Virus record (IMG/VR): IMGVR_UViG_3300024520_000050
Coordinates: 114,401 to 178,400 of that record
DNA: 64,000 nucleotides
Source: a virus
Reading direction: 5' to 3' (one strand)
The first letter of the stretch is position 1. Every line of letters begins with the position of its first letter. Below, one piece after another: positions 1 through 55,726 of the stretch. The translations under genes and the position numbers were made by a program. The notes beneath the pieces were generated by a model. It did not search any database. It was not told where the DNA came from and saw only the letters and a program-made list of their open reading frames with translations.

Positions 1-1526
1 TCTTCTAATCCTTCTGATGCTGTTACAAGTTCACTTCTTAAAAATAAATCATCTCCTAATTGCTCTACTAAAGTTTCAGCACTTTTCGTTTCAAATGTAG
101 GATTGCCATTTTCATCAGGCTCACCAGGAAGTTTAATCATACCATCTTTAGCATCAAAATTTTCATAATTAGCCGTTGTTGTATTCTCCCAACCTTTAGT
201 TTTATCATTTTTCTTAAAGAATATAACAGCTGAATTAGATTTATAATCTTCTCCTACTGCACCTAAACTTTGTAATTCACCTTCACCTTCAGGAATGTCA
301 GCTGTACCACCCCCTTCGCCACGATTAGTAGTACTCATAACAGAATTTACCAATGCATGATTATTATCTATAGTTGTATAAGAAAATCCATCAGTTTGTA
401 AGTCTGCAGTAACTCCCACTAAATCAGCTTCTGCATGAATATTTCTATATTTATCTATCATATCACTTTCTTGTGATTTTGTACCATCAACTCCATGACT
501 AGAAATAGAACTAGTATATGTCCTAACAACAGGTGGTCTTGATTCTGTGTCTGTTCCTGCTCCGTTATTTCCACTTTTAGCAGGTCTTTCTGCTTGATCA
601 GAATTTTGAGCCATTTTTTGTCTAGTAACATCTGTAGTGTGTAAATCAGTTTTTTCAGATTGACCATATGTAAATATAAGATCTTGAGTTTTCTGACGAG
701 CATAATCTATTGCTTCTTGTTCACTTTTACCTAATTTATACAATGCATGATCTTTTTGAAGTCTATAATATTGACTTCCTTCACTATCTTTAATAAATCC
801 ATCTAATGCACCTTTAATAATATGATCTACTTGAGTCCAATTATCTGAATCTTTTTTAGAATGTTTTTGCCAATATGCAACCCAATCAGGGACAGAAGTT
901 CCATCTGCTAATTTCTTATCAGGTAGTTTTGTAAAGTTAGGATCTTTTGCATACCATGACTTACCACTTATTGTTTTACCTATTTCATCGAATAATCTTT
1001 TAGCTGCTTGGGAATGATCCAAAGTTTTTTCCATTCCCCAATTACCAGTAAATTTACGAGCAGAACCATCATCTAAACGTAATGAACCACTTAAAGGATT
1101 ATAAGTTGGATCGCCAAAATAAGATACTGTACCATTTGCTGATTCTATTTTTTGTTTAATCATAATAGCTTCATCTGCATTTCTTTTAGCTTCAGATAAT
1201 ATTCTAAAATCTGTTTTTCCTGCCCATTCAGTTGCTAATGTTTGAAATTGATCTCTATTTATGCTAGAATAATCTCTATCAGCTGCATCAACCATTGATG
1301 ATACATCTGTACTAAAACCTTTTTCTAATTGTTGTGCTAACTCAAAATCATCATTATGATCACGAGTTTGTTTTAACATGGCTGCTTTACTTTTAGCTAT
1401 CATGTCTCTTAGTTCATTAGCGCGAGTATCCCTCGCGACAATGCCCTCTTTCATACTTGTTATGTCTTCGACATATGGAGTTACTTCACTTACTTTAGCT
1501 GATGTTACACCTTTAATTATTGCCAT
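1..1526 (-). CDS. Large hypothetical protein (>508 aa), truncated by the left edge; possibly virion-associated
   Basis: Manually translated open frame from ATG at 1526 (MAIIKGVTSAKVSEVTPYVEDITSMKEG...) with no stop before position 1. It is missing from the ORF track because it runs off the edge. The virion role is a guess. Confidence 0.75.
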   Translation of the reverse strand, partial: MAIIKGVTSAKVSEVTPYVEDITSMKEGIVARDTRANELRDMIAKSKAAMLKQTRDHNDDFELAQQLEKGFSTDVSSMVDAADRDYSSINRDQFQTLATEWAGKTDFRILSEAKRNADEAIMIKQKIESANGTVSYFGDPTYNPLSGSLRLDDGSARKFTGNWGMEKTLDHSQAAKRLFDEIGKTISGKSWYAKDPNFTKLPDKKLADGTSVPDWVAYWQKHSKKDSDNWTQVDHIIKGALDGFIKDSEGSQYYRLQKDHALYKLGKSEQEAIDYARQKTQDLIFTYGQSEKTDLHTTDVTRQKMAQNSDQAERPAKSGNNGAGTDTESRPPVVRTYTSSISSHGVDGTKSQESDMIDKYRNIHAEADLVGVTADLQTDGFSYTTIDNNHALVNSVMSTTNRGEGGGTADIPEGEGELQSLGAVGEDYKSNSAVIFFKKNDKTKGWENTTTANYENFDAKDGMIKLPGEPDENGNPTFETKSAETLVEQLGDDLFLRSELVTASEGLE

Positions 1527-1586
1527 TATTGTATATTATATAAAAAATAAAGTATTATTTTTGCTTAGTTACTATTTGTAACTTTA

Positions 1587-1594
1587 CAAATATA
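1587..1594 (-). promoter_or_regulatory. Bacteroidota-type -7 promoter element (TATATTTG)
   Basis: Matches TAnnTTTG upstream of the 1526 start. The same 13-mer TTACAAATATAAT (+ strand) recurs at about 36914-36926, upstream of an HNH gene. Confidence 0.4.
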
Positions 1595-1654
1595 ATACTT
1601 TACCTTATAATTATCGAAACAATAGCTTAAAAACGTACGAATCCTTTACTTAGC

Positions 1655-2230
1655 CTAAGTTGACTTAATAATAGGTGTGTTTCGCCTTGTATATTCGCTA
1701 AGAAAGTTTTGTGCAATCTCCACCATTGATGAAGTATGCCTATCTCCTTTAAATTTATTTACTTGATCACATACAACTTGTACGTTGTCCATTGTGTATC
1801 CACCACTTGGAGCTATTTGATCCAATGATGGACTATGTGGATGTACTCGTTTATATTCTGATCTCCGTGAATAAGGTTTAATAAAGAAAGATGTTGTTGT
1901 GATTTCACACATTCCATTCTTTAATTTATTAATTACCCATTCTTCTGTTAAGTCAAAATCATTTCCTCGTGCTTTAGCTCGTGCTTTAGCTCCTGCAATT
2001 AATGTTCTAGCTCTATACTTAATTGGATTTGCTAGAGCCCATATTTCCATCTTCTTACGTCGTTTTTCTCTCTTTTGATCTTGTACTATTAAATCATCTA
2101 CATAACGCTTAATACTAGCTTTAGATCGTCTCCTAAGACCTGCAAAGTTAATAATTTGCTGTATCTCTACGATTGTTGCTGATATGTATGCACTCTTTAT
2201 GATTTCTTTTGTCTTTTTACAATATCTCAT
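1655..2230 (-). CDS. HNH-like (His-Me finger) endonuclease, putative free-standing homing endonuclease
   Basis: AKARAK...FDLT..W, C, SPSLDQI..SGGYTMDNVQVVC..VNKFK pattern. Confidence 0.7.
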   Translation of the reverse strand: MRYCKKTKEIIKSAYISATIVEIQQIINFAGLRRRSKASIKRYVDDLIVQDQKREKRRKKMEIWALANPIKYRARTLIAGAKARAKARGNDFDLTEEWVINKLKNGMCEITTTSFFIKPYSRRSEYKRVHPHSPSLDQIAPSGGYTMDNVQVVCDQVNKFKGDRHTSSMVEIAQNFLSEYTRRNTPIIKST

Positions 2231-6721: not shown

Positions 6722-7835
6722 AATCTCTTACCGCGATACCAACAGCTTCAAGTGGTACTTTCTTATTTGAAAGTTTACGATACTCAACCGTAATCATTTG
6801 TCCTTTGACTTTGTCATCGAACTCGGCTGCCCATTTTTCACGTTGAGCACTTGTACCTTTCAATTTTACATGGAATTTTTCGCCGTCTTTAGTCTCACAA
6901 ATTAATGTAGACTGTAGAGCCATCTTACCTTTATTCCAGTAATGATCAATACACTTGAATTCATCAGTTACACGTGGTTTTATTTTCTTTTTACCAGATG
7001 TTCTGAAGCCAAAATCATACATAGAATTAGGGTCACAAAAGATAGTCCCTTCAAAACCTAACTCAAGTGATTCTTTATGGAATGCTATCAACTCTGCATG
7101 AGTATTAATAGGTGTTCCAACATCAACTTTAATGTTAGGTAAATTACTTACATCTAATGCAAGTAATAAACTACGACGTTGAGTGAATGTTAATCCGGGG
7201 ATTGCTATATCATAAATATGATACTCCAATTTTTCATTTGGATCATTACTCTTAACCATACTACCAATGTCTTGTAATGCTACTCCATGCAAATACAATT
7301 CACCATCGAATGTTTCATCCAATTGTTTATCATGCATTTCTGTAACAGAATCAAGAATATGTTGTAGATTAAATATTTTACCTTCACGAGATTTGTTTCT
7401 CACGAGGCCATTATAACGTTCAGCAAAGTTTCTACAACCATCATACTTTCTCTGTGCAAATCCAGGTTTAAATGGACCACTAGCTTCTTTATAAGGATTC
7501 AATAACATCGGCATGTCACTCAAATCCTTAAATGTATTGTACGTAGTAGATTTAACATAAGCTAAATTCAACTTATATCCTTTAGCAAACAATTTGGTAT
7601 GACGACTAACAAGCTCTTTCTCAGCTTGTTGCTTTGCTGTTGTAGCATTCTTCCTACCTAAATTCTTTCCTTCTCTAACTACGACTTTACTAGTCTTAGA
7701 ATTAACTTCATTGCCCACTGTTCCTGTTTCAGTGAACATAGTGTATTCATTTATACCCTTTGTCTTACGAGTATACATTTGCACATAGACTTCCTTTCCA
7801 GGTTTAGCCTTTCTATATAATTTTTTTAACTTCAT
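6714..7835 (-). CDS. lig: ATP-dependent DNA ligase (copy 1)
   Basis: Motif I QRKYDGCR, FDGELY, YDI, FEGTI, KIKP, OB fold. Confidence 0.9.
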   Translation of the reverse strand: MKLKKLYRKAKPGKEVYVQMYTRKTKGINEYTMFTETGTVGNEVNSKTSKVVVREGKNLGRKNATTAKQQAEKELVSRHTKLFAKGYKLNLAYVKSTTYNTFKDLSDMPMLLNPYKEASGPFKPGFAQRKYDGCRNFAERYNGLVRNKSREGKIFNLQHILDSVTEMHDKQLDETFDGELYLHGVALQDIGSMVKSNDPNEKLEYHIYDIAIPGLTFTQRRSLLLALDVSNLPNIKVDVGTPINTHAELIAFHKESLELGFEGTIFCDPNSMYDFGFRTSGKKKIKPRVTDEFKCIDHYWNKGKMALQSTLICETKDGEKFHVKLKGTSAQREKWAAEFDDKVKGQMITVEYRKLSNKKVPLEAVGIAVRDYE

Positions 7836-8190: not shown

Positions 8191-8498
8191 TACGTTACGA
8201 TTGCTAAAATAGATTCCGCAAGGCTAATAAGTTCAACACGCATTTCTTCTTTCTTTTCATCAGTTAAATTAATCTCTGATTTTAGAATATCGGTAAGAAT
8301 GTCTAATTTTTCTTTCTTCAATCCTATGGCTGCAGCACGAACACGAATTAAACTAAATTCATGATTCATTCTTTCAGCTAATTCTTGCATTGTTGGAAGC
8401 TGTTCTTTTGTTTCCCCTTGTACAGGTCCTTCTACTTCAGGTTGAGGTTGTGCTGTAGTTAACGGCATCTCTTTGATTTTGTCGTCTGACATTTTCAA
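8190..8498 (-). CDS. Hypothetical protein (coiled coil)
   Basis: ORF in operon. Confidence 0.55.
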   Translation of the reverse strand: MKMSDDKIKEMPLTTAQPQPEVEGPVQGETKEQLPTMQELAERMNHEFSLIRVRAAAIGLKKEKLDILTDILKSEINLTDEKKEEMRVELISLAESILAIVT

Positions 8499-9453
8499 TT
8501 ATTGTTTTGGTATTAATTAGTCCCATTCCTTGACAGAATTCAGCTACATCTTTATAGATCCAGATGTTTTCTGTAGGAAGTATTATATTGTTTATTTGGT
8601 CTTCTTCAGCAAATTTAGTTGACATTTCAATTCCTGTTGGATCATTATCATATAAATAATAGATGTTTCTAAATCTTGATTTTAAATCCTTCATTATATG
8701 CGATGGAATACGAATACTTTCACTCTGAGGAGCTACTGCATTATAACCCATTTCCCACATACATAGCATATCTTTACCACCACTAACTATATACAAATCA
8801 TCACCAAAATGAGGAAGTTGCTTATAACCAAAGATGTTATTAATGCAAGTATTAGATTTCCATTTATTATAATCAGAATATGGTTGATATAATTTAACCT
8901 TATTAGATTTATTAAACGAATACATATAACATGGATCTGTAGATTTATATCTATATTTCAATTTAAAACTAACTGATCCAGCATTAGACATATATGAATT
9001 TACTGGTCTAGCTACTTTACTTACATTTTCAATTGTAATATGATATTGTTTCCAATAGTCAATATCATCTTGATTCCAATTCCTTAGTTTAATTTTAAAA
9101 TTAACACTTGGCTTCTTGTATTTCTTTTTTACTGAAACATCTCTTTGAGGTTTCAATACTTTCGAAACAGCATTTAATACCATATCATTATTAATTCTAA
9201 TCATTGCTTCATAGAAATTACAATCATGAATCCACATGACATATTTGAAACAATCAAAGTTGGCGTCTATTCCTCGGGCTCTATCTACAAAGATGTATTT
9301 TTGTCCATACCATTTAAAGAAACATGTTCCATTTCCATCTTGGCGCATAGGATTTTTATACATTGCTTTATTATCAGTTAGATGTTCACCCCAATAGTGT
9401 TCCATTATCTGCTTTTCTGTCGTTACTGACAGAATATCTTGTTTTAAAATCAT
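8437..9453 (-). CDS. dnaG: DNA primase (TOPRIM)
   Basis: NPMRQD..TC N-terminal region; TOPRIM YIVSGGKD...YYLYDND; KDVAE. Confidence 0.85.
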   Translation of the reverse strand: MILKQDILSVTTEKQIMEHYWGEHLTDNKAMYKNPMRQDGNGTCFFKWYGQKYIFVDRARGIDANFDCFKYVMWIHDCNFYEAMIRINNDMVLNAVSKVLKPQRDVSVKKKYKKPSVNFKIKLRNWNQDDIDYWKQYHITIENVSKVARPVNSYMSNAGSVSFKLKYRYKSTDPCYMYSFNKSNKVKLYQPYSDYNKWKSNTCINNIFGYKQLPHFGDDLYIVSGGKDMLCMWEMGYNAVAPQSESIRIPSHIMKDLKSRFRNIYYLYDNDPTGIEMSTKFAEEDQINNIILPTENIWIYKDVAEFCQGMGLINTKTIIENVRRQNQRDAVNYSTTST

Positions 9454-37853: not shown

Positions 37854-38702
37854 TTATAGTAATGAATTAATGATCTCTGATCTAGAAAATATAGGAGTTT
37901 CCACAACTTCCCACTTACTTCTAATTTTTACTACATCCTTAAAGTACACAGTTGTAGGATTAACTTGCCAATCTCCATTCTCTAATTGAAAAGCTTCATT
38001 ATTCACCTTATCATCCACATATTGATTCTTTACAATCAAACTACCTCTCTTCTTAGAAAAATGCAAGTCATTCCAATTATGTCCTTTCTGAAAACACATT
38101 TCTTGCATATCAGAACCATTCTTTAAATGTAATTCTTTATGTGAATATAATGATTGTGCTAACATAGCAATACTGTTCTTCTCTGCATCACGTTGACGTG
38201 CTACAAAATAGTTATTTATATCACTTTGTGGTATTGAAAATGCACGTGAATCGAAGTTCGCTAATTTTGGTAAATATGTTTGTTGAACTAATGAAGTTTG
38301 AAGTTCAATGATTTCTGGTTCTTCAGCAAAGCATTTTAAAAACCTCAACTGATTAAATATACCAGTAGCTAAACTAGCACTTACACTAGTCATCTTCTGA
38401 ACATTATAATTAAACCATGCTTCAGTAGTTAACTTATCATAATCAGTAATTAAAATACTAATTTCATCTGATTGTGTATAAGCAGCTTTAGCTCCTTGAA
38501 TGTTTTCACATAAATAAATAGCGGTTTTCTGCATATCTTCAATTAAACCCTCATCAAAAGGTTTATTTAATCCTTTAGTATAAGAACTAAATTTTTTTCC
38601 ATCAATACGACAGATAACTGGAACATGTCTAGATAAATAATAACGATTTCTATTTTCGTAATATTCTTTCATTCTAGTCATTATAGGGCATTTTCTACTC
38701 AT
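37854..38702 (-). CDS. thg1: tRNA(His) guanylyltransferase Thg1-like protein
   Basis: RMKEYYE, RIDGKKFS, YTQSDEISI, FDSRAF. Confidence 0.92.
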   Translation of the reverse strand: MSRKCPIMTRMKEYYENRNRYYLSRHVPVICRIDGKKFSSYTKGLNKPFDEGLIEDMQKTAIYLCENIQGAKAAYTQSDEISILITDYDKLTTEAWFNYNVQKMTSVSASLATGIFNQLRFLKCFAEEPEIIELQTSLVQQTYLPKLANFDSRAFSIPQSDINNYFVARQRDAEKNSIAMLAQSLYSHKELHLKNGSDMQEMCFQKGHNWNDLHFSKKRGSLIVKNQYVDDKVNNEAFQLENGDWQVNPTTVYFKDVVKIRSKWEVVETPIFSRSEIINSLL

Positions 38703-41633: not shown

Positions 41634-41938
41634 TACATCTGGAGGGACTCGAACCCTCACGGCCATTACGGCCAATGGATTTTCATACCACTATAGCTTT
41701 CACTACCAATTTAATGTTTTGTGGTCTGGACTATACCTCAATCTTATTAATGATTAATCATTAACTTAGACTACTCCCGTCTAGTCTCTACACCTTCAAT
41801 ATCTAATGATAAAGCTTGGCTCGGTATTGCCATTTAACAGGTTTCACCGAATTTGAGAGTATGCGCAATATTAAATTTCTTTAATAAGGCTCAAATTATC
41901 CATAAGTCCATCGCGTCTACCAGTTCCGCCACAGATGC
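41634..41938 (-). tRNA. trnL: tRNA-Leu(TAA) interrupted by a group I intron
   Basis: Exon 1 GCATCTG...ATGGACTT (41904-41938), exon 2 AAAATCCAT... (41634-41683); spliced loop CT-TAA-AA; long variable arm. Confidence 0.92.
41684..41903 (-). mobile_element. Group I intron (220 nt, ORF-less, trnL-type)
   Basis: AAATTCGGTGAAACC...GGCAATACCGAGCCAAG, GTAGAGACTAGACGGG, GGTATAGTCC; terminal G. Confidence 0.92.
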
Positions 41939-51628: not shown

Positions 51629-51822
51629 TTAATATCATCTAAATGTTAATAATTCTAATTTTTCTAATGCTTCTTTTACTGTTATTTCAATAAATCCTGG
51701 AGTCATAATAGGACGTTTACCGTCTTCCATCATTGCATTTAATTCTTCAATCCATTTACCTTTAACAATAATCAAACCTTGTTCAATCAGGTAAGCTTCA
51801 AAACCTGTAAATTTTGTATCAC

Positions 51823-52146
51823 TCATATTCTATTATTTAAAACTCGTTCTACCATTCCTTTAAACATTTCTTTTGCTACTAAATGAGTATTATCTGATAT
51901 ATATAAATCCCATATATTAGATGCTGCTTTAGACTCTTCTTCAATTGAATCATACTCATTAACACTCATCAATTTATAAATACTAATTGTAGGATTTATA
52001 TTTAATTTAGCATTCATTTCACCTTTGATATATGATCGTGCTTCAAAATTTAATCCTGCAATATCTAAACGTAATTCACTCTCTTCTATATCCCATATAA
52101 GATGTTTAACCCAATTACGTGTTGGTTTAATGTTTGGTTCTCTCAT
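51823..52146 (-). CDS. Hypothetical protein
   Basis: ORF in operon. Confidence 0.5.
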   Translation of the reverse strand: MREPNIKPTRNWVKHLIWDIEESELRLDIAGLNFEARSYIKGEMNAKLNINPTISIYKLMSVNEYDSIEEESKAASNIWDLYISDNTHLVAKEMFKGMVERVLNNRI

Positions 52147-52171
52147 TGTATGATTGTTTGTTTATAAATAG

Positions 52172-52400
52172 TGACTCGGGTAGGATTCGAACCTACGATC
52201 CTCTGATTAATCTTTGGTTAATCTTTTGACTAACCCTTGTGGAAATGACAGGTTTCGAACCTGCATCAATGGTATTTGATTCACAATAGTCAAATTCTTG
52301 CGAATATCAACTGTTCGGGTTTTATTATATTTCCCGAAGCGTCTTCCAATTCCGCCACATTTCCAAAGTCAGATGCTTTAGCCAACTAAGCTACCGAGTC
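52172..52400 (-). tRNA. trnK: tRNA-Lys(TTT) split in the anticodon by a ~155-nt insertion
   Basis: 5' half GACTCGG...TCTGA-CTTT (52365-52400); 3' half TTAA-TCAGA...CCGAGTC-A (52172-52210). Confidence 0.85.
52240..52364 (-). ncRNA. Nested tRNA-like element lacking a canonical anticodon
   Basis: Acceptor GGAAATG/CATTTCC-A, Leu-like D arm, TTCGGG/CCCGAA around a 13-nt A/U loop, ~50-nt variable region, T arm GCAGG-TTCGAAA-CCTGT. Confidence 0.8.
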
Positions 52401-52823
52401 ATTAACTTACCCATGTACATTAGGTAAGTTACATATACATTATCTTTAAGAATAAGATAACTAGATTAATTTGAGGTTCCTTGGTTTGTTGAACCTTGCG
52501 TGCAATCTTACATCACATAAATACTAACGATTTCATCGTGTCGCCACCTCCTTGAATCTACCTCAAGGTTAGAACCAGTTCTTTGCTGGAATTTGTAACT
52601 TCTTTATATTTCTTTTTCAATTGTGACAAGATTAACTTCAATTATTTGAACATAATTATCTTCTTTTACTTCTTCTAAAGTCATATCAACTAAACTCCAA
52701 TCTTCTTTCTCAATTGCTTTATTAGCTAATTCTTCAGTCATAAATAGATTATTTCTTTCAAATATCGGCATTTCCCATTCACACCACACTTTATATATTA
52801 TCATATTATATTGTTTTAATTAG

Positions 52824-52896
52824 TGGTACTACAGGGATTCGAACCCCAGACTCTCTGATCTTCAATCAGAAGCTCTACCAGCTGAGCTATAGTACC
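52824..52896 (-). tRNA. trnF: tRNA-Phe(GAA)
   Basis: TCTGA-TTGAAGA-TCAGA. Confidence 0.92.
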
Positions 52897-52990
52897 AAAA
52901 TGAATAAGTGTAATCCTGTTGTATTACTTGCTCTCCTTTAATATATCACTAATTCCAAATGTAAGAGACCTATTCATTATATTAATTTAG

Positions 52991-53086
52991 TTTCGGAAAC
53001 CAGATTCGAACTGATACTTGTCTCATAAATAAACGACTAGTAAACGTTTATCAATTATGAGTGCCTCTCCATTGGGCTATTCCGAA
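52991..53086 (-). ncRNA. tRNA-like RNA with a 14-bp extended anticodon arm
   Basis: Acceptor TTCGGAA/TTCCGAA, D arm, CTCATAA-(TTG)-ATAAACG-loop-CGTTTAT-TTATGAG, T arm ATCAG-TTCGAAT-CTGGT. Confidence 0.8.
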
Positions 53087-53139
53087 ATATACTCTCCCTG
53101 ATCATATATCCTAGATTCAGGGAGAGTTTTGTGACTAAT

Positions 53140-53278
53140 CGTATTCAATAAGTTTTTGGCTTAAAATCATTTGCTCGACCAAAGAGCTTCACGTCCTTTT
53201 ATACTAGTTCTTGAGGACGTGACGGGATTCGAACCCGCTCCTTTGATTATTGACTTACTGACTTTCGTCGATGAATCT
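53140..53278 (-). ncRNA. Circularly permuted tRNA mimic, YrlA-type Y RNA candidate
   Basis: Order T arm, acceptor-like stem closed by a loop, D arm; GACGAAAG matches the bacterial Y RNA GNCGAAN(0-1)G motif; ends can pair. Confidence 0.7.
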
Positions 53279-53366
53279 CATACTAAAGCTTGACTCGCAA
53301 CACTAAATGTTAAAATTACTAGTGTGTTAATCTAAGGCTAAAGCTAGAGTCATTTTTATTATTATC

Positions 53367-54155
53367 TTATTTAGAATGTAAGTATGCTAATACTTTTTCT
53401 CCTAAGTTACTTTCTTCTACTGGTACAACATTTGCTCTTCCTAAGGCTTCAATAACAGCACAGTACAAATTATCATATCTTTTCAAAATTACAGCACGTT
53501 CCATTAAACTCAATTCACCTGAGAATTTCTGTGTAGTATATTTACCAATATTTACCTGCTTAGATGTCTCACCTTTGATTGGAGCTCTATTACCTTCACT
53601 AGCATGAGGATCATTCAAAATAAATGATTCTTTAATTGTAGTTTTAGCAAATCCTTCTTCAATAGGTGTTTGATATACTCCATCAGTTCCAGTATAAGAA
53701 TCATCAGTTGTTTCCTTCCATAATTCAGTTGCTGAACGAACAGGTAAAATAGGGTATAATCCTTTCAACTTAGTATTATCCAATGTAGTTTTCAATCTTA
53801 ACAATTCTAATGAGCTATAAGTCCCCCATACTTTATCTTCTACAATTAGTTCTGCAGTTACTCTACCCGATGCATTGGTCTTCTCAATTGAAAATGCAAT
53901 ATTCATAAAATCACGAACTGATTCTTCCATCCAATCTAATTGCTGCCTAACTGTTGATTGCATATGAGTATAACCACGTTTGGTTGGTTCATCAGCATAT
54001 CCATCAAGTGGATCGTAAGTTCTACGTTCACCACGGAAAATTCCTTGGTTATTCTTAAACTTTTTCATCATATCTCCCAAACTGTTTTTAAAAGTTGTCT
54101 CTTTCTTCTCTCTTAGTCCTAAGAATGTACTTAGATTCTGTTTTGTTTTTTCCAT
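53367..54155 (-). CDS. Uncharacterised conserved protein directly upstream of the Y RNA candidate
   Basis: 262 aa; F.G.RRTY.P, EK.NA....A.L.V, LL.L...L......LPV, G..T...FSG, AL..AN, G..V..YL pattern; function unknown. Confidence 0.65.
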   Translation of the reverse strand: MEKTKQNLSTFLGLREKKETTFKNSLGDMMKKFKNNQGIFRGERRTYDPLDGYADEPTKRGYTHMQSTVRQQLDWMEESVRDFMNIAFSIEKTNASGRVTAELIVEDKVWGTYSSLELLRLKTTLDNTKLKGLYPILPVRSATELWKETTDDSYTGTDGVYQTPIEEGFAKTTIKESFILNDPHASEGNRAPIKGETSKQVNIGKYTTQKFSGELSLMERAVILKRYDNLYCAVIEALGRANVVPVEESNLGEKVLAYLHSK

Positions 54156-55171: not shown

Positions 55172-55726
55172 TTAATCATAGTAACACCTTACAGTAGCAT
55201 ATATTTTCATAAATGTATTAAATATAGCACGTATATTTTCTGCTCCTACAGGATTTGCTGAATGTACTTTTATTTCAGAAGATAAGAATATTTTATTGTC
55301 AATACAATAATCAGTTAACCATTTAGCACAGTCCATACCAGAAGGTTGTAATACTCTATTCTTCCTTTGTTTACGCTTCTTATTTTTATCCTTATCAGCT
55401 ATTATTTCACCTAAATCATGATCAAAAGAAATACGTTCAGGTAATCCTCTTGTTTTAATAATATCAGAGAATTCATCTAAAGTAGTTACAAGAACCCAAT
55501 CTTTTAGTAAATATAATTCACCAAAACCATTGATTTTACGTAAGTATTCAATACTTCTTATAGGATGTCTTTCATCATCTAAGAATAAGTTATAATTTCC
55601 TATATTATCCAGTTCCTTTTCAAAATACTCAATTCTCTTCAAGTATTCAGGTTTACTAGAATGACGACATTCTTTAAGACTTTTAATCTTTTGTTCTAAT
55701 ACATAGATTTCATCCATCATCTTCAA
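55172..55726 (-). CDS. Cyclic-phosphate-processing receiver (cREC-type) domain protein
   Basis: LFLDDER.P, W.LV....EF, ISFDHDLG, SGMDCAKWL, VHSANPVG..NI. Confidence 0.85.
   Translation of the reverse strand: MKMMDEIYVLEQKIKSLKECRHSSKPEYLKRIEYFEKELDNIGNYNLFLDDERHPIRSIEYLRKINGFGELYLLKDWVLVTTLDEFSDIIKTRGLPERISFDHDLGEIIADKDKNKKRKQRKNRVLQPSGMDCAKWLTDYCIDNKIFLSSEIKVHSANPVGAENIRAIFNTFMKIYATVRCYYD

Follow-up and report, generated by a model that had tools for sequence, protein, structure and literature searches.

A phage tRNA-Lys(UUU) gene split at the anticodon by an insert that begins with a tRNA-Leu-like RNA element

The only lysine tRNA gene of a 178-kb phage is interrupted within its anticodon by a 155-nt insert that starts with a full-size tRNA-Leu-like element and ends with a short trailer. 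The gene lies in the window analyzed here, a 64-kb stretch of DNA that represents the last part of an IMG/VR virus record of 178.4 kb (GC content 31%; complete according to CheckV). The insert is located in the anticodon loop, folds like a tRNA and has one end that coincides with the end of the inner tRNA, and the split gene joins the tRNA-shaped introns of phages, a known but unexplained kind. Judged from its sequence, it is an unusual variant: the inner RNA is full-size, tRNA-Leu-like and a member of a wider family, and the tRNA-like part comes first with the trailer after it. Lak megaphage tRNAs with 'enigmatic' introns, one of which 'may encode a tRNA', have been described (Devoto et al. 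2019, PMC6784885), and a 2026 survey noted jumbo-phage tRNA introns that 'could encode another tRNA' (PMC13037316), both without a mechanism. In our literature searches we found no mechanism for tRNA-shaped phage introns and no demonstration of removal and rejoining for any member. A first-pass annotation had correctly pointed to the Lak precedent. It had also suggested a new class of non-self-splicing tRNA intron; the lack of a group I match agrees with a non-self-splicing intron, but the class is not wholly new because the kind is already in print.

Like every tRNA gene of the phage, the split gene is on the minus strand. With introns allowed, ARAGORN called tRNA-Lys(ttt) at c[52171,52400] and placed a 155-nt intron between ...ACTTT and TAATC. 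The 5′ exon (52365-52400, minus strand) contains the acceptor strand GACUCGG, the D arm, the anticodon stem strand UCUGA and CUUU. The 3′ exon (52172-52209, minus strand) continues with UAA, UCAGA, the variable loop, the T arm GUAGG-UUCGAAU-CCUAC, CCGAGUC and A73, followed by C74 at 52171. As anticipated at first pass, the outer halves are close to ideal: the acceptor, D, anticodon and T stems are all perfect, and joining of the exons gives the loop CUUUUAA with one redundant U. Because of this redundancy the junction is at 34/35 or 35/36, and the boundaries of the insert (52210-52364, minus strand), placed by ARAGORN, RNAfold and exon alignment, can be shifted by one U. No gap arises at the junction when the joined exons are aligned with the uninterrupted tRNA-Lys genes of a related phage (L015) and of a bacterium (L038). 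Among 25 tRNA or tRNA-like genes it is the sole Lys tRNA, not only in the window but in the whole 178-kb genome, and AAA is the most used codon of the phage. A misassembly can be ruled out since four further assemblies, from different samples, show 100% identity over the 550 bases around the split gene. An 8-bp hairpin (AACUUACC...GGUAAGUU) at 52401-52432 (minus strand) ends 3 nt upstream of the tRNA-Lys 5′ end.

The inner tRNA-Leu-like element occupies bases 1-125 of the insert (52240-52364, minus strand). It scored 35.4 bits with the Rfam tRNA model (gathering score 29, E=0.001 in the 64-kb window), and the match begins at intron base 1, in line with the earlier claim that the insert starts exactly with its own acceptor stem. 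This stem, GGAAAUG/CAUUUCC, is followed by the D arm UG-GCGG-AAUUGGAAG-ACGC, a stem UCGGG/CCCGA with a 13-nt A/U loop in the place of the anticodon loop, two hairpins, one of them GCAA-capped, the T arm GCAGG-UUCGAAA-CCUGU and A73. The Rfam match assigns about 47 nt to the variable region. The assignment is based on the Rfam tRNA score, the fold, a family alignment (A2) with its covariation, and a model (R1) built from the family described below. RNAfold of the insert returned the inner cloverleaf, the two extra hairpins and a hairpin in the trailer, GGUUAGUC/GAUUAACC, as first noted (z=-4.1; 0 of 200 shuffles folded equally well). By sequence and fold, the trailer (52210-52239, minus strand) is 30 nt long and reads CAAG-(GGUUAGUC AAAA GAUUAACC)-AAAGAU with the 8-bp hairpin at 52216-52235; its CCAAAG (52212-52217) could base-pair with CUUU|GG of the 5′ junction. 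Thus, the insert is flush with the inner element at its 5′ end, where G+1 directly follows the exon U, and not at its 3′ end. The 13-nt inner loop (AAAUAUAAUAAAA) departs from the 7-nt loop with U33 and a purine at 37 of a decoding tRNA, and ARAGORN did not call the inner element as a tRNA. All checked details of the first-pass description of the locus were correct.

Established intron classes do not account for the insert. In the region 51800-53300 the group I model RF00028 gave no match at E<=10; the P3-P9 core and the terminal G are both missing, as had been claimed before, and the intron ends with ...AAAGAU or, in the alternative register, with ...AAAGA. The positive control for this search was a match of 59.1 bits in the tRNA-Leu(UAA) gene of the same phage (41633-41938, minus strand). 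That gene harbors a genuine 220-nt group I intron, matched by RF00028 over 41703-41913, which was absent from a first pass over the whole window at the gathering threshold. A bulge-helix-bulge intron, defined by two 3-nt bulges with a 4-bp helix between them at the splice sites, is rejected because the insertion site is 34/35 or 35/36 instead of the canonical 37/38. Moreover, the sole exon-intron helix, CUUUGG/CCAAAG, has a 5-nt bulge on the 3′ side and none on the 5′ side, and the second split gene presented below lacks this helix. The hint of an EndA endonuclease in the phage, a PF01974 match of only 13.2 bits (E=0.014), was unconfirmed by hmmscan and is probably spurious. A target-site duplication was rejected on sequence.

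A JGI metagenome-contig scan with two exon anchors separated by a gap of 130-160 nt returned the contig Ga0209186_1005799 (L036), which is 7.8 kb long, has a GC content of 27% and was assembled from six samples. In its tRNA-Lys(UUU) gene, located at c[732,957], a 152-nt insert interrupts the same position, CUUU|...|UAA, again with a homologous tRNA-like element first. This inner element has the acceptor GGAAAAG/CUUUUCC, the identical D loop AAUUGGAAG, the T arm GUAGG/CCUAC and G73, and its trailer (CAUAUAACGU) comprises only 10 nt. Between the two genes, 52/75 exon positions and 84/162 insert positions are identical. Despite this divergence (31% in the exons) both outer cloverleaves are perfect, and the inner stems differ by compensatory changes at acceptor pair 6:67, D-stem pairs 10:25 and 11:24 and T-stem pair 50:64. 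We take the diverged second copy at the same site as a sign of selection keeping the inner and outer folds, and the pairs kept by compensatory changes argue against a dead gene. Only the top half of the inner tRNA is conserved; the CUUUGG/CCAAAG pairing and the whole central region of the insert are not, and the two trailers have no structure in common. The sole difference in a population variant of L036 is one extra base in the inner D loop, a site at which real tRNAs also differ in length. No proteins common to the L036 contig and our phage were detectable. The contig carries a Dda/RecD-type helicase, for which there were no close relatives in the protein collection. Copies at the same site would fit long conservation as well as site-specific spread, and the two split genes could stem from separate recent insertions instead of long conservation.

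Of the empty and filled sites that the first-pass annotation had proposed to look for among related phages, the empty ones were found. Related phages carry uninterrupted tRNA-Lys genes, and blastn against GenBank phages matched the outer halves only, e.g. in the intact tRNA-Lys of LR745206.1. The second filled site is that of L036, a contig from an unrelated phage. The tRNA arrays on contigs with homologues of the neighboring DUF7873 protein (60-64% identity) contained no split Lys gene.

The D arm of the inner element equals that of the phage's own tRNA-Leu(UAA) at 19 of 21 positions and is also close to that of E. coli tRNA-Leu. When IMG/VR was scanned for the D loop AAUUGGAAG followed by a T loop 70-100 nt later, 62 matches were obtained. 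Fifteen of them have a fully paired 7-bp acceptor and 5-bp T stem, an outcome with a chance of about 8 in a million per match. They belong to a family, here called family X, of elements of 123-146 nt that share the top half and differ greatly in the bottom half: a 7-bp acceptor, UG, a GCGR-AAUUGGAAG-ACGC D arm, a variable bottom of 70-100 nt, a T arm of the RYAGG-UUCRA type and usually A73 followed by C. Alignment A2, covariation and tails place the inner element in family X and thereby tie the locus to a wider family of free-standing tRNA-Leu-like phage RNAs. In the alignment of 11 members, 99.4% of the cells are paired, and both bases change at 11 of 15 pairs; the paired fraction is partly by construction because acceptor and T-stem pairing was the criterion by which the nine IMG/VR members had been selected, while the D stem and the two tRNA-nested copies that complete the set were not chosen by pairing. 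In 10 of the 11 members, including one with an A:U double change, the base before +1 can pair with base 73. Thus, the acceptor may extend to 8 bp, with the RNase P cut one base earlier, which would account for the redundant U.

Most members of family X are free-standing, some of them within tRNA clusters. One 129-nt member with a 9-bp stem of its own (1606-1734, minus strand, of IMGVR_UViG_3300043436_001494, L052) is nested in a group I intron (1522-1951, minus strand; 72 bits), where it occupies a peripheral loop between the P7 and P3′ strands; a homing-endonuclease-like ORF of 256 aa upstream of it ends where the ribozyme core begins. An element at 1691-1819 (minus strand) of L054 has a body nearly identical to that of the L052 member, and their acceptors, AGUCAGG/CCUGACU and GUGUGAG/CUCACAC, are wholly different and each fully paired. 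In L089, the acceptor 5′ strand of L054 is found on a different body, and the 3′ strand differs by one base and is still fully paired. From these three cases the modules of family X look shuffled. Model R1 detected no other copy in the genome of our phage. Exact-pattern scans of IMG/VR were empty for the inner T arm plus acceptor, for the exons with a 130-160-nt gap, for the inner 5′ part and for the junction plus D loop, and the inner pattern gave only chance matches in coding sequence of GTDB genomes.

How might such an insert be removed? All 23 of 23 phage tRNA genes (window 35764-59261, minus strand) carry N73 and C74 followed by A or U, i.e. only the first C of CCA, and this uniform signature points to one shared 3′-end pathway. 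The inner element ends with A73-C-A-A and its L036 counterpart with G73-C-A-U. As its tail is the same as in the 23 tRNA genes, the inner element should enter the same 3′-end pathway. A U at -1, the G1-C72 pair and A73 give the inner element a standard RNase P site at its 5′ side. Cuts by RNase P and RNase Z produce a 3′-OH and a 5′-phosphate, which can be joined directly by an ATP-dependent RNA ligase without end healing. The phage encodes an Rnl2-like ligase (genome 7224-8282; PF09414, 51-52 bits) whose sole PDB relative is T4 Rnl2. The earlier idea of phage-encoded RNA ligases stands for this enzyme and not for RtcB or Rnl1, which were not found in the phage genome; the same applies to an AAA_33-type kinase. 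Two further genes are mentioned as context only. A protein with a cRec (cyclic-phosphate-processing receiver) domain (55172-55726, minus strand; PF20274, 71.7 bits) is encoded 3 kb from the locus, and a Thg1-like 3′-5′ nucleotidyltransferase of the tRNA 5′-end repair family (38229-38678, minus strand; PF04446, 94.7 bits) is encoded in the middle of the tRNA region. The cRec domain is predicted to act in RNA end-healing through processing of cyclic phosphate ends (PMC7824862). T-arm hairpins or tRNA-like elements also occur just after the stop codons of protein genes on the genome minus strand near 732, 7096, 10349, 24611, 26050 and 30387, all outside the window; one of them immediately follows the Rnl2-like ligase gene. 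These elements may serve as signals for processing or stabilization.

The reading that we favor, with a probability of roughly 0.45 and hence tentatively, is that of a working nested gene: RNase P and tRNA 3′-end enzymes would release the inner RNA and the Rnl2-like ligase would rejoin the halves. The anatomy, conservation, family membership and enzyme inventory are observed, and from them we infer every cleavage and the ligation as follows. RNase P would cut 5′ of the inner G+1, or one base earlier, leaving a 3′-OH on the 5′ exon. Processing of the tRNA 3′ end would cut after the inner A73 or C74, and the leftover 30-nt trailer would be removed by a further nuclease. The halves, held together by the outer cloverleaf, would then be sealed by an ATP-dependent ligase, with the phage Rnl2-like enzyme as the candidate. 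Once released, the inner RNA probably serves a function of its own and might itself act as a Leu-type tRNA mimic. In favor of a working gene are the intact outer tRNA, colinear with uninterrupted tRNA-Lys, and the tRNA-shaped introns of the Lak-A1 megaphage. AAA as the commonest codon together with a sole Lys tRNA also counts for it; however, the argument that the phage needs its only Lys tRNA is weak because tRNAs for Glu and Ala are missing from the phage genome. Against it count the distance of about 160 kb between the ligase gene and the split gene and the uninterrupted tRNA-Lys genes of relatives.

The proposal made at first pass that tRNA-processing enzymes excise the insert is thus plausible for the inner element, which has the features of an RNase P and 3′-end substrate, but not for the trailer. 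With 10-30 nt left between the inner element and the 3′ exon, RNase P and 3′-end processing alone cannot define the 3′ splice site, and a plain 'RNase P plus RNase Z' model is incomplete. Since the trailers share no structure and differ in length, no known tRNA enzyme explains the 3′ cut. Another nuclease is needed, or a rule read from the outer tRNA. If the 8-bp trailer hairpin stacked on CUUU/AAAG, the resulting helix of 12 bp could pass for an acceptor/T stack and would place an RNase Z-type cut immediately ahead of UUAA. We do not rely on this idea because L036 has no equivalent.

A broader version of the model is possible, though in our view rather doubtful: autonomous tRNA-Leu-like genes of family X would nest both in tRNA anticodon loops and in a group I intron and, when in a tRNA, would be excised by RNase P and 3′-end enzymes with a phage ligase resealing the exons. 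If true, it would illustrate how one RNA gene can house another, smaller one. To our knowledge, bacterial and phage tRNA introns are held to be self-splicing ribozymes. Removal by ordinary tRNA-trimming enzymes plus a ligase would be a new splicing route, the third for tRNAs, protein- and RNase P-dependent, and the bacterial world would have its first tRNA intron that is not a ribozyme.

The same observations can be read differently. The tRNA-Leu-like RNA might be the product that matters, with the tRNA-Lys body as a carrier that gives transcription, folding and stability, or with halves that are never rejoined, so that no working tRNA-Lys is made. Engineered RNAs placed in the anticodon arm of tRNA-Lys accumulate stably, the trailer has no known removal route, and the phage also does without Glu and Ala tRNAs. 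In addition, family X behaves like a gene in its own right, being mostly free-standing and also riding in the peripheral loop of a group I intron. The anticodon bases would be dispensable in a pure carrier; yet both split genes keep exactly CUUU and UAA beside the insert and a full cloverleaf despite 31% exon divergence, and we regard this reading as unlikely. Inactivation of the gene by a mobile or duplicated tRNA-like sequence that inserted into it would be compatible with the intact tRNA-Lys of relatives and with the fact that no splicing machinery was identified. Such an insertional pseudogene should hardly have outer and inner structures without decay, a sequence unchanged across five assemblies and, in L036, the same site filled by a diverged homologue with its pairing kept, so that we consider it very unlikely.

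Still a little less credit is due to a new self-splicing or self-cleaving ribozyme that uses the tRNA-like fold as a scaffold and has its ends joined by host RtcB or a phage ligase. The RNA is structured and has a GNRA-capped hairpin, and pairing of both exon ends with sequences close to the 3′ end is possible in this copy. No Rfam ribozyme family matched, however, the terminal G is missing, and neither the exon pairings nor the central region are conserved in L036, where only the tRNA top half is. The lowest rank is taken by the evasion of anticodon nucleases, which the first-pass annotation had raised: the split would hide tRNA-Lys from PrrC- or PARIS-type nucleases until maturation, or the inner RNA would be a decoy. 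Both nested cases concern tRNA-Lys(UUU), a tRNA known to be attacked by nucleases, and the phage has RNA-repair-type genes (Rnl2-like, cRec and Thg1-like). Nevertheless, the Lak tRNA-shaped introns are in other tRNAs (Thr, Tyr/Ser), the mature tRNA would be exposed again once spliced, and no nuclease or inhibitor gene is linked to the locus. Nothing ties the split gene to PrrC or PARIS, and we consider the suggestion very unlikely.

The proposed working nested gene can be compared with several known systems. We re-found two genes with tRNA-shaped introns in Lak-A1 (L008, MK250016.1), at c[2332,2518] and c[9984,10148], and their inserts look paralogous. As in our phage, the anticodon loop of a tRNA is interrupted by a tRNA-shaped insert devoid of a ribozyme core. 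The Lak-A1 inserts consist of a hairpin leader, AUUAAA and a tRNA-like element ending 0-2 nt from the 3′ exon (1 nt in the Thr gene), so that the tRNA-like part comes last in the insert, the mirror image of the arrangement with a tRNA-like 5′ part and a trailer. The inner elements are not homologous; only ours has a tRNA-Leu-type D arm and a full-size body of 125 nt, and in contrast to Lak phages our phage has 178 kb and reading frames that are open under the standard code.

Group I introns of the tRNA-Leu(UAA) type share the anticodon-loop location and the U before the 5′ splice site, whereas the present insert has no P3-P9 core or terminal G and only 155 nt. Archaeal and eukaryal tRNA introns (EndA/Sen with RtcB or Trl1) depend on proteins for removal and ligation, as proposed here; in contrast, the site here is 34/35 or 35/36 instead of 37/38, a bulge-helix-bulge is missing, and EndA and RtcB were not found in the phage. 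In MALAT1-mascRNA and mitochondrial tRNA punctuation, a tRNA-like fold is a built-in cleavage signal for RNase P/Z, as it would be in our phage. Unlike in our proposal, nothing is rejoined after release. T4 Pnkp and Rnl1 are phage enzymes that rejoin a tRNA-Lys broken in the anticodon loop, similar to the ligation envisaged here. They repair PrrC damage with 2′,3′-cyclic phosphate and 5′-OH ends, whereas our case is an encoded insert in a phage in which no Rnl1 or AAA_33-type kinase was found.

Further tRNA-like elements surround the locus. A tRNA-like gene at window 52990-53086 (minus strand; Rfam tRNA 33.4 bits) has a 30-nt 'anticodon' loop that holds the 7-bp hairpin AUAAACG/CGUUUAU. It is probably another non-decoding mimic because the Ile(UAU) call by ARAGORN has U37. 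The DUF7873 protein encoded nearby (53367-54155, minus strand) is conserved beside tRNA arrays in many phages and is 36% identical to a Lak protein. Its confident structural model (pLDDT 90.6) had no informative PDB match (Foldseek TM ~0.13; best VIA-align Z 6.1, to helical proteins). At 53142-53261 (minus strand) there is a circularly permuted tRNA-like RNA with a weak match to YrlA (Y RNA-like; 29 bits versus a gathering score of 69). A TROVE/Ro60 gene was not found in the whole phage genome, and the related phages L013, L015 and L026 carry Ro60 beside their tRNA arrays. Inside tRNA arrays of two of these, at 8445-8579 (+) of L026 and 7218-7341 (+) of L015, we observed another tRNA-like RNA. 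The two copies are homologous to each other and have an acceptor and a T arm, no Leu-type D arm and the tail A-CAA.
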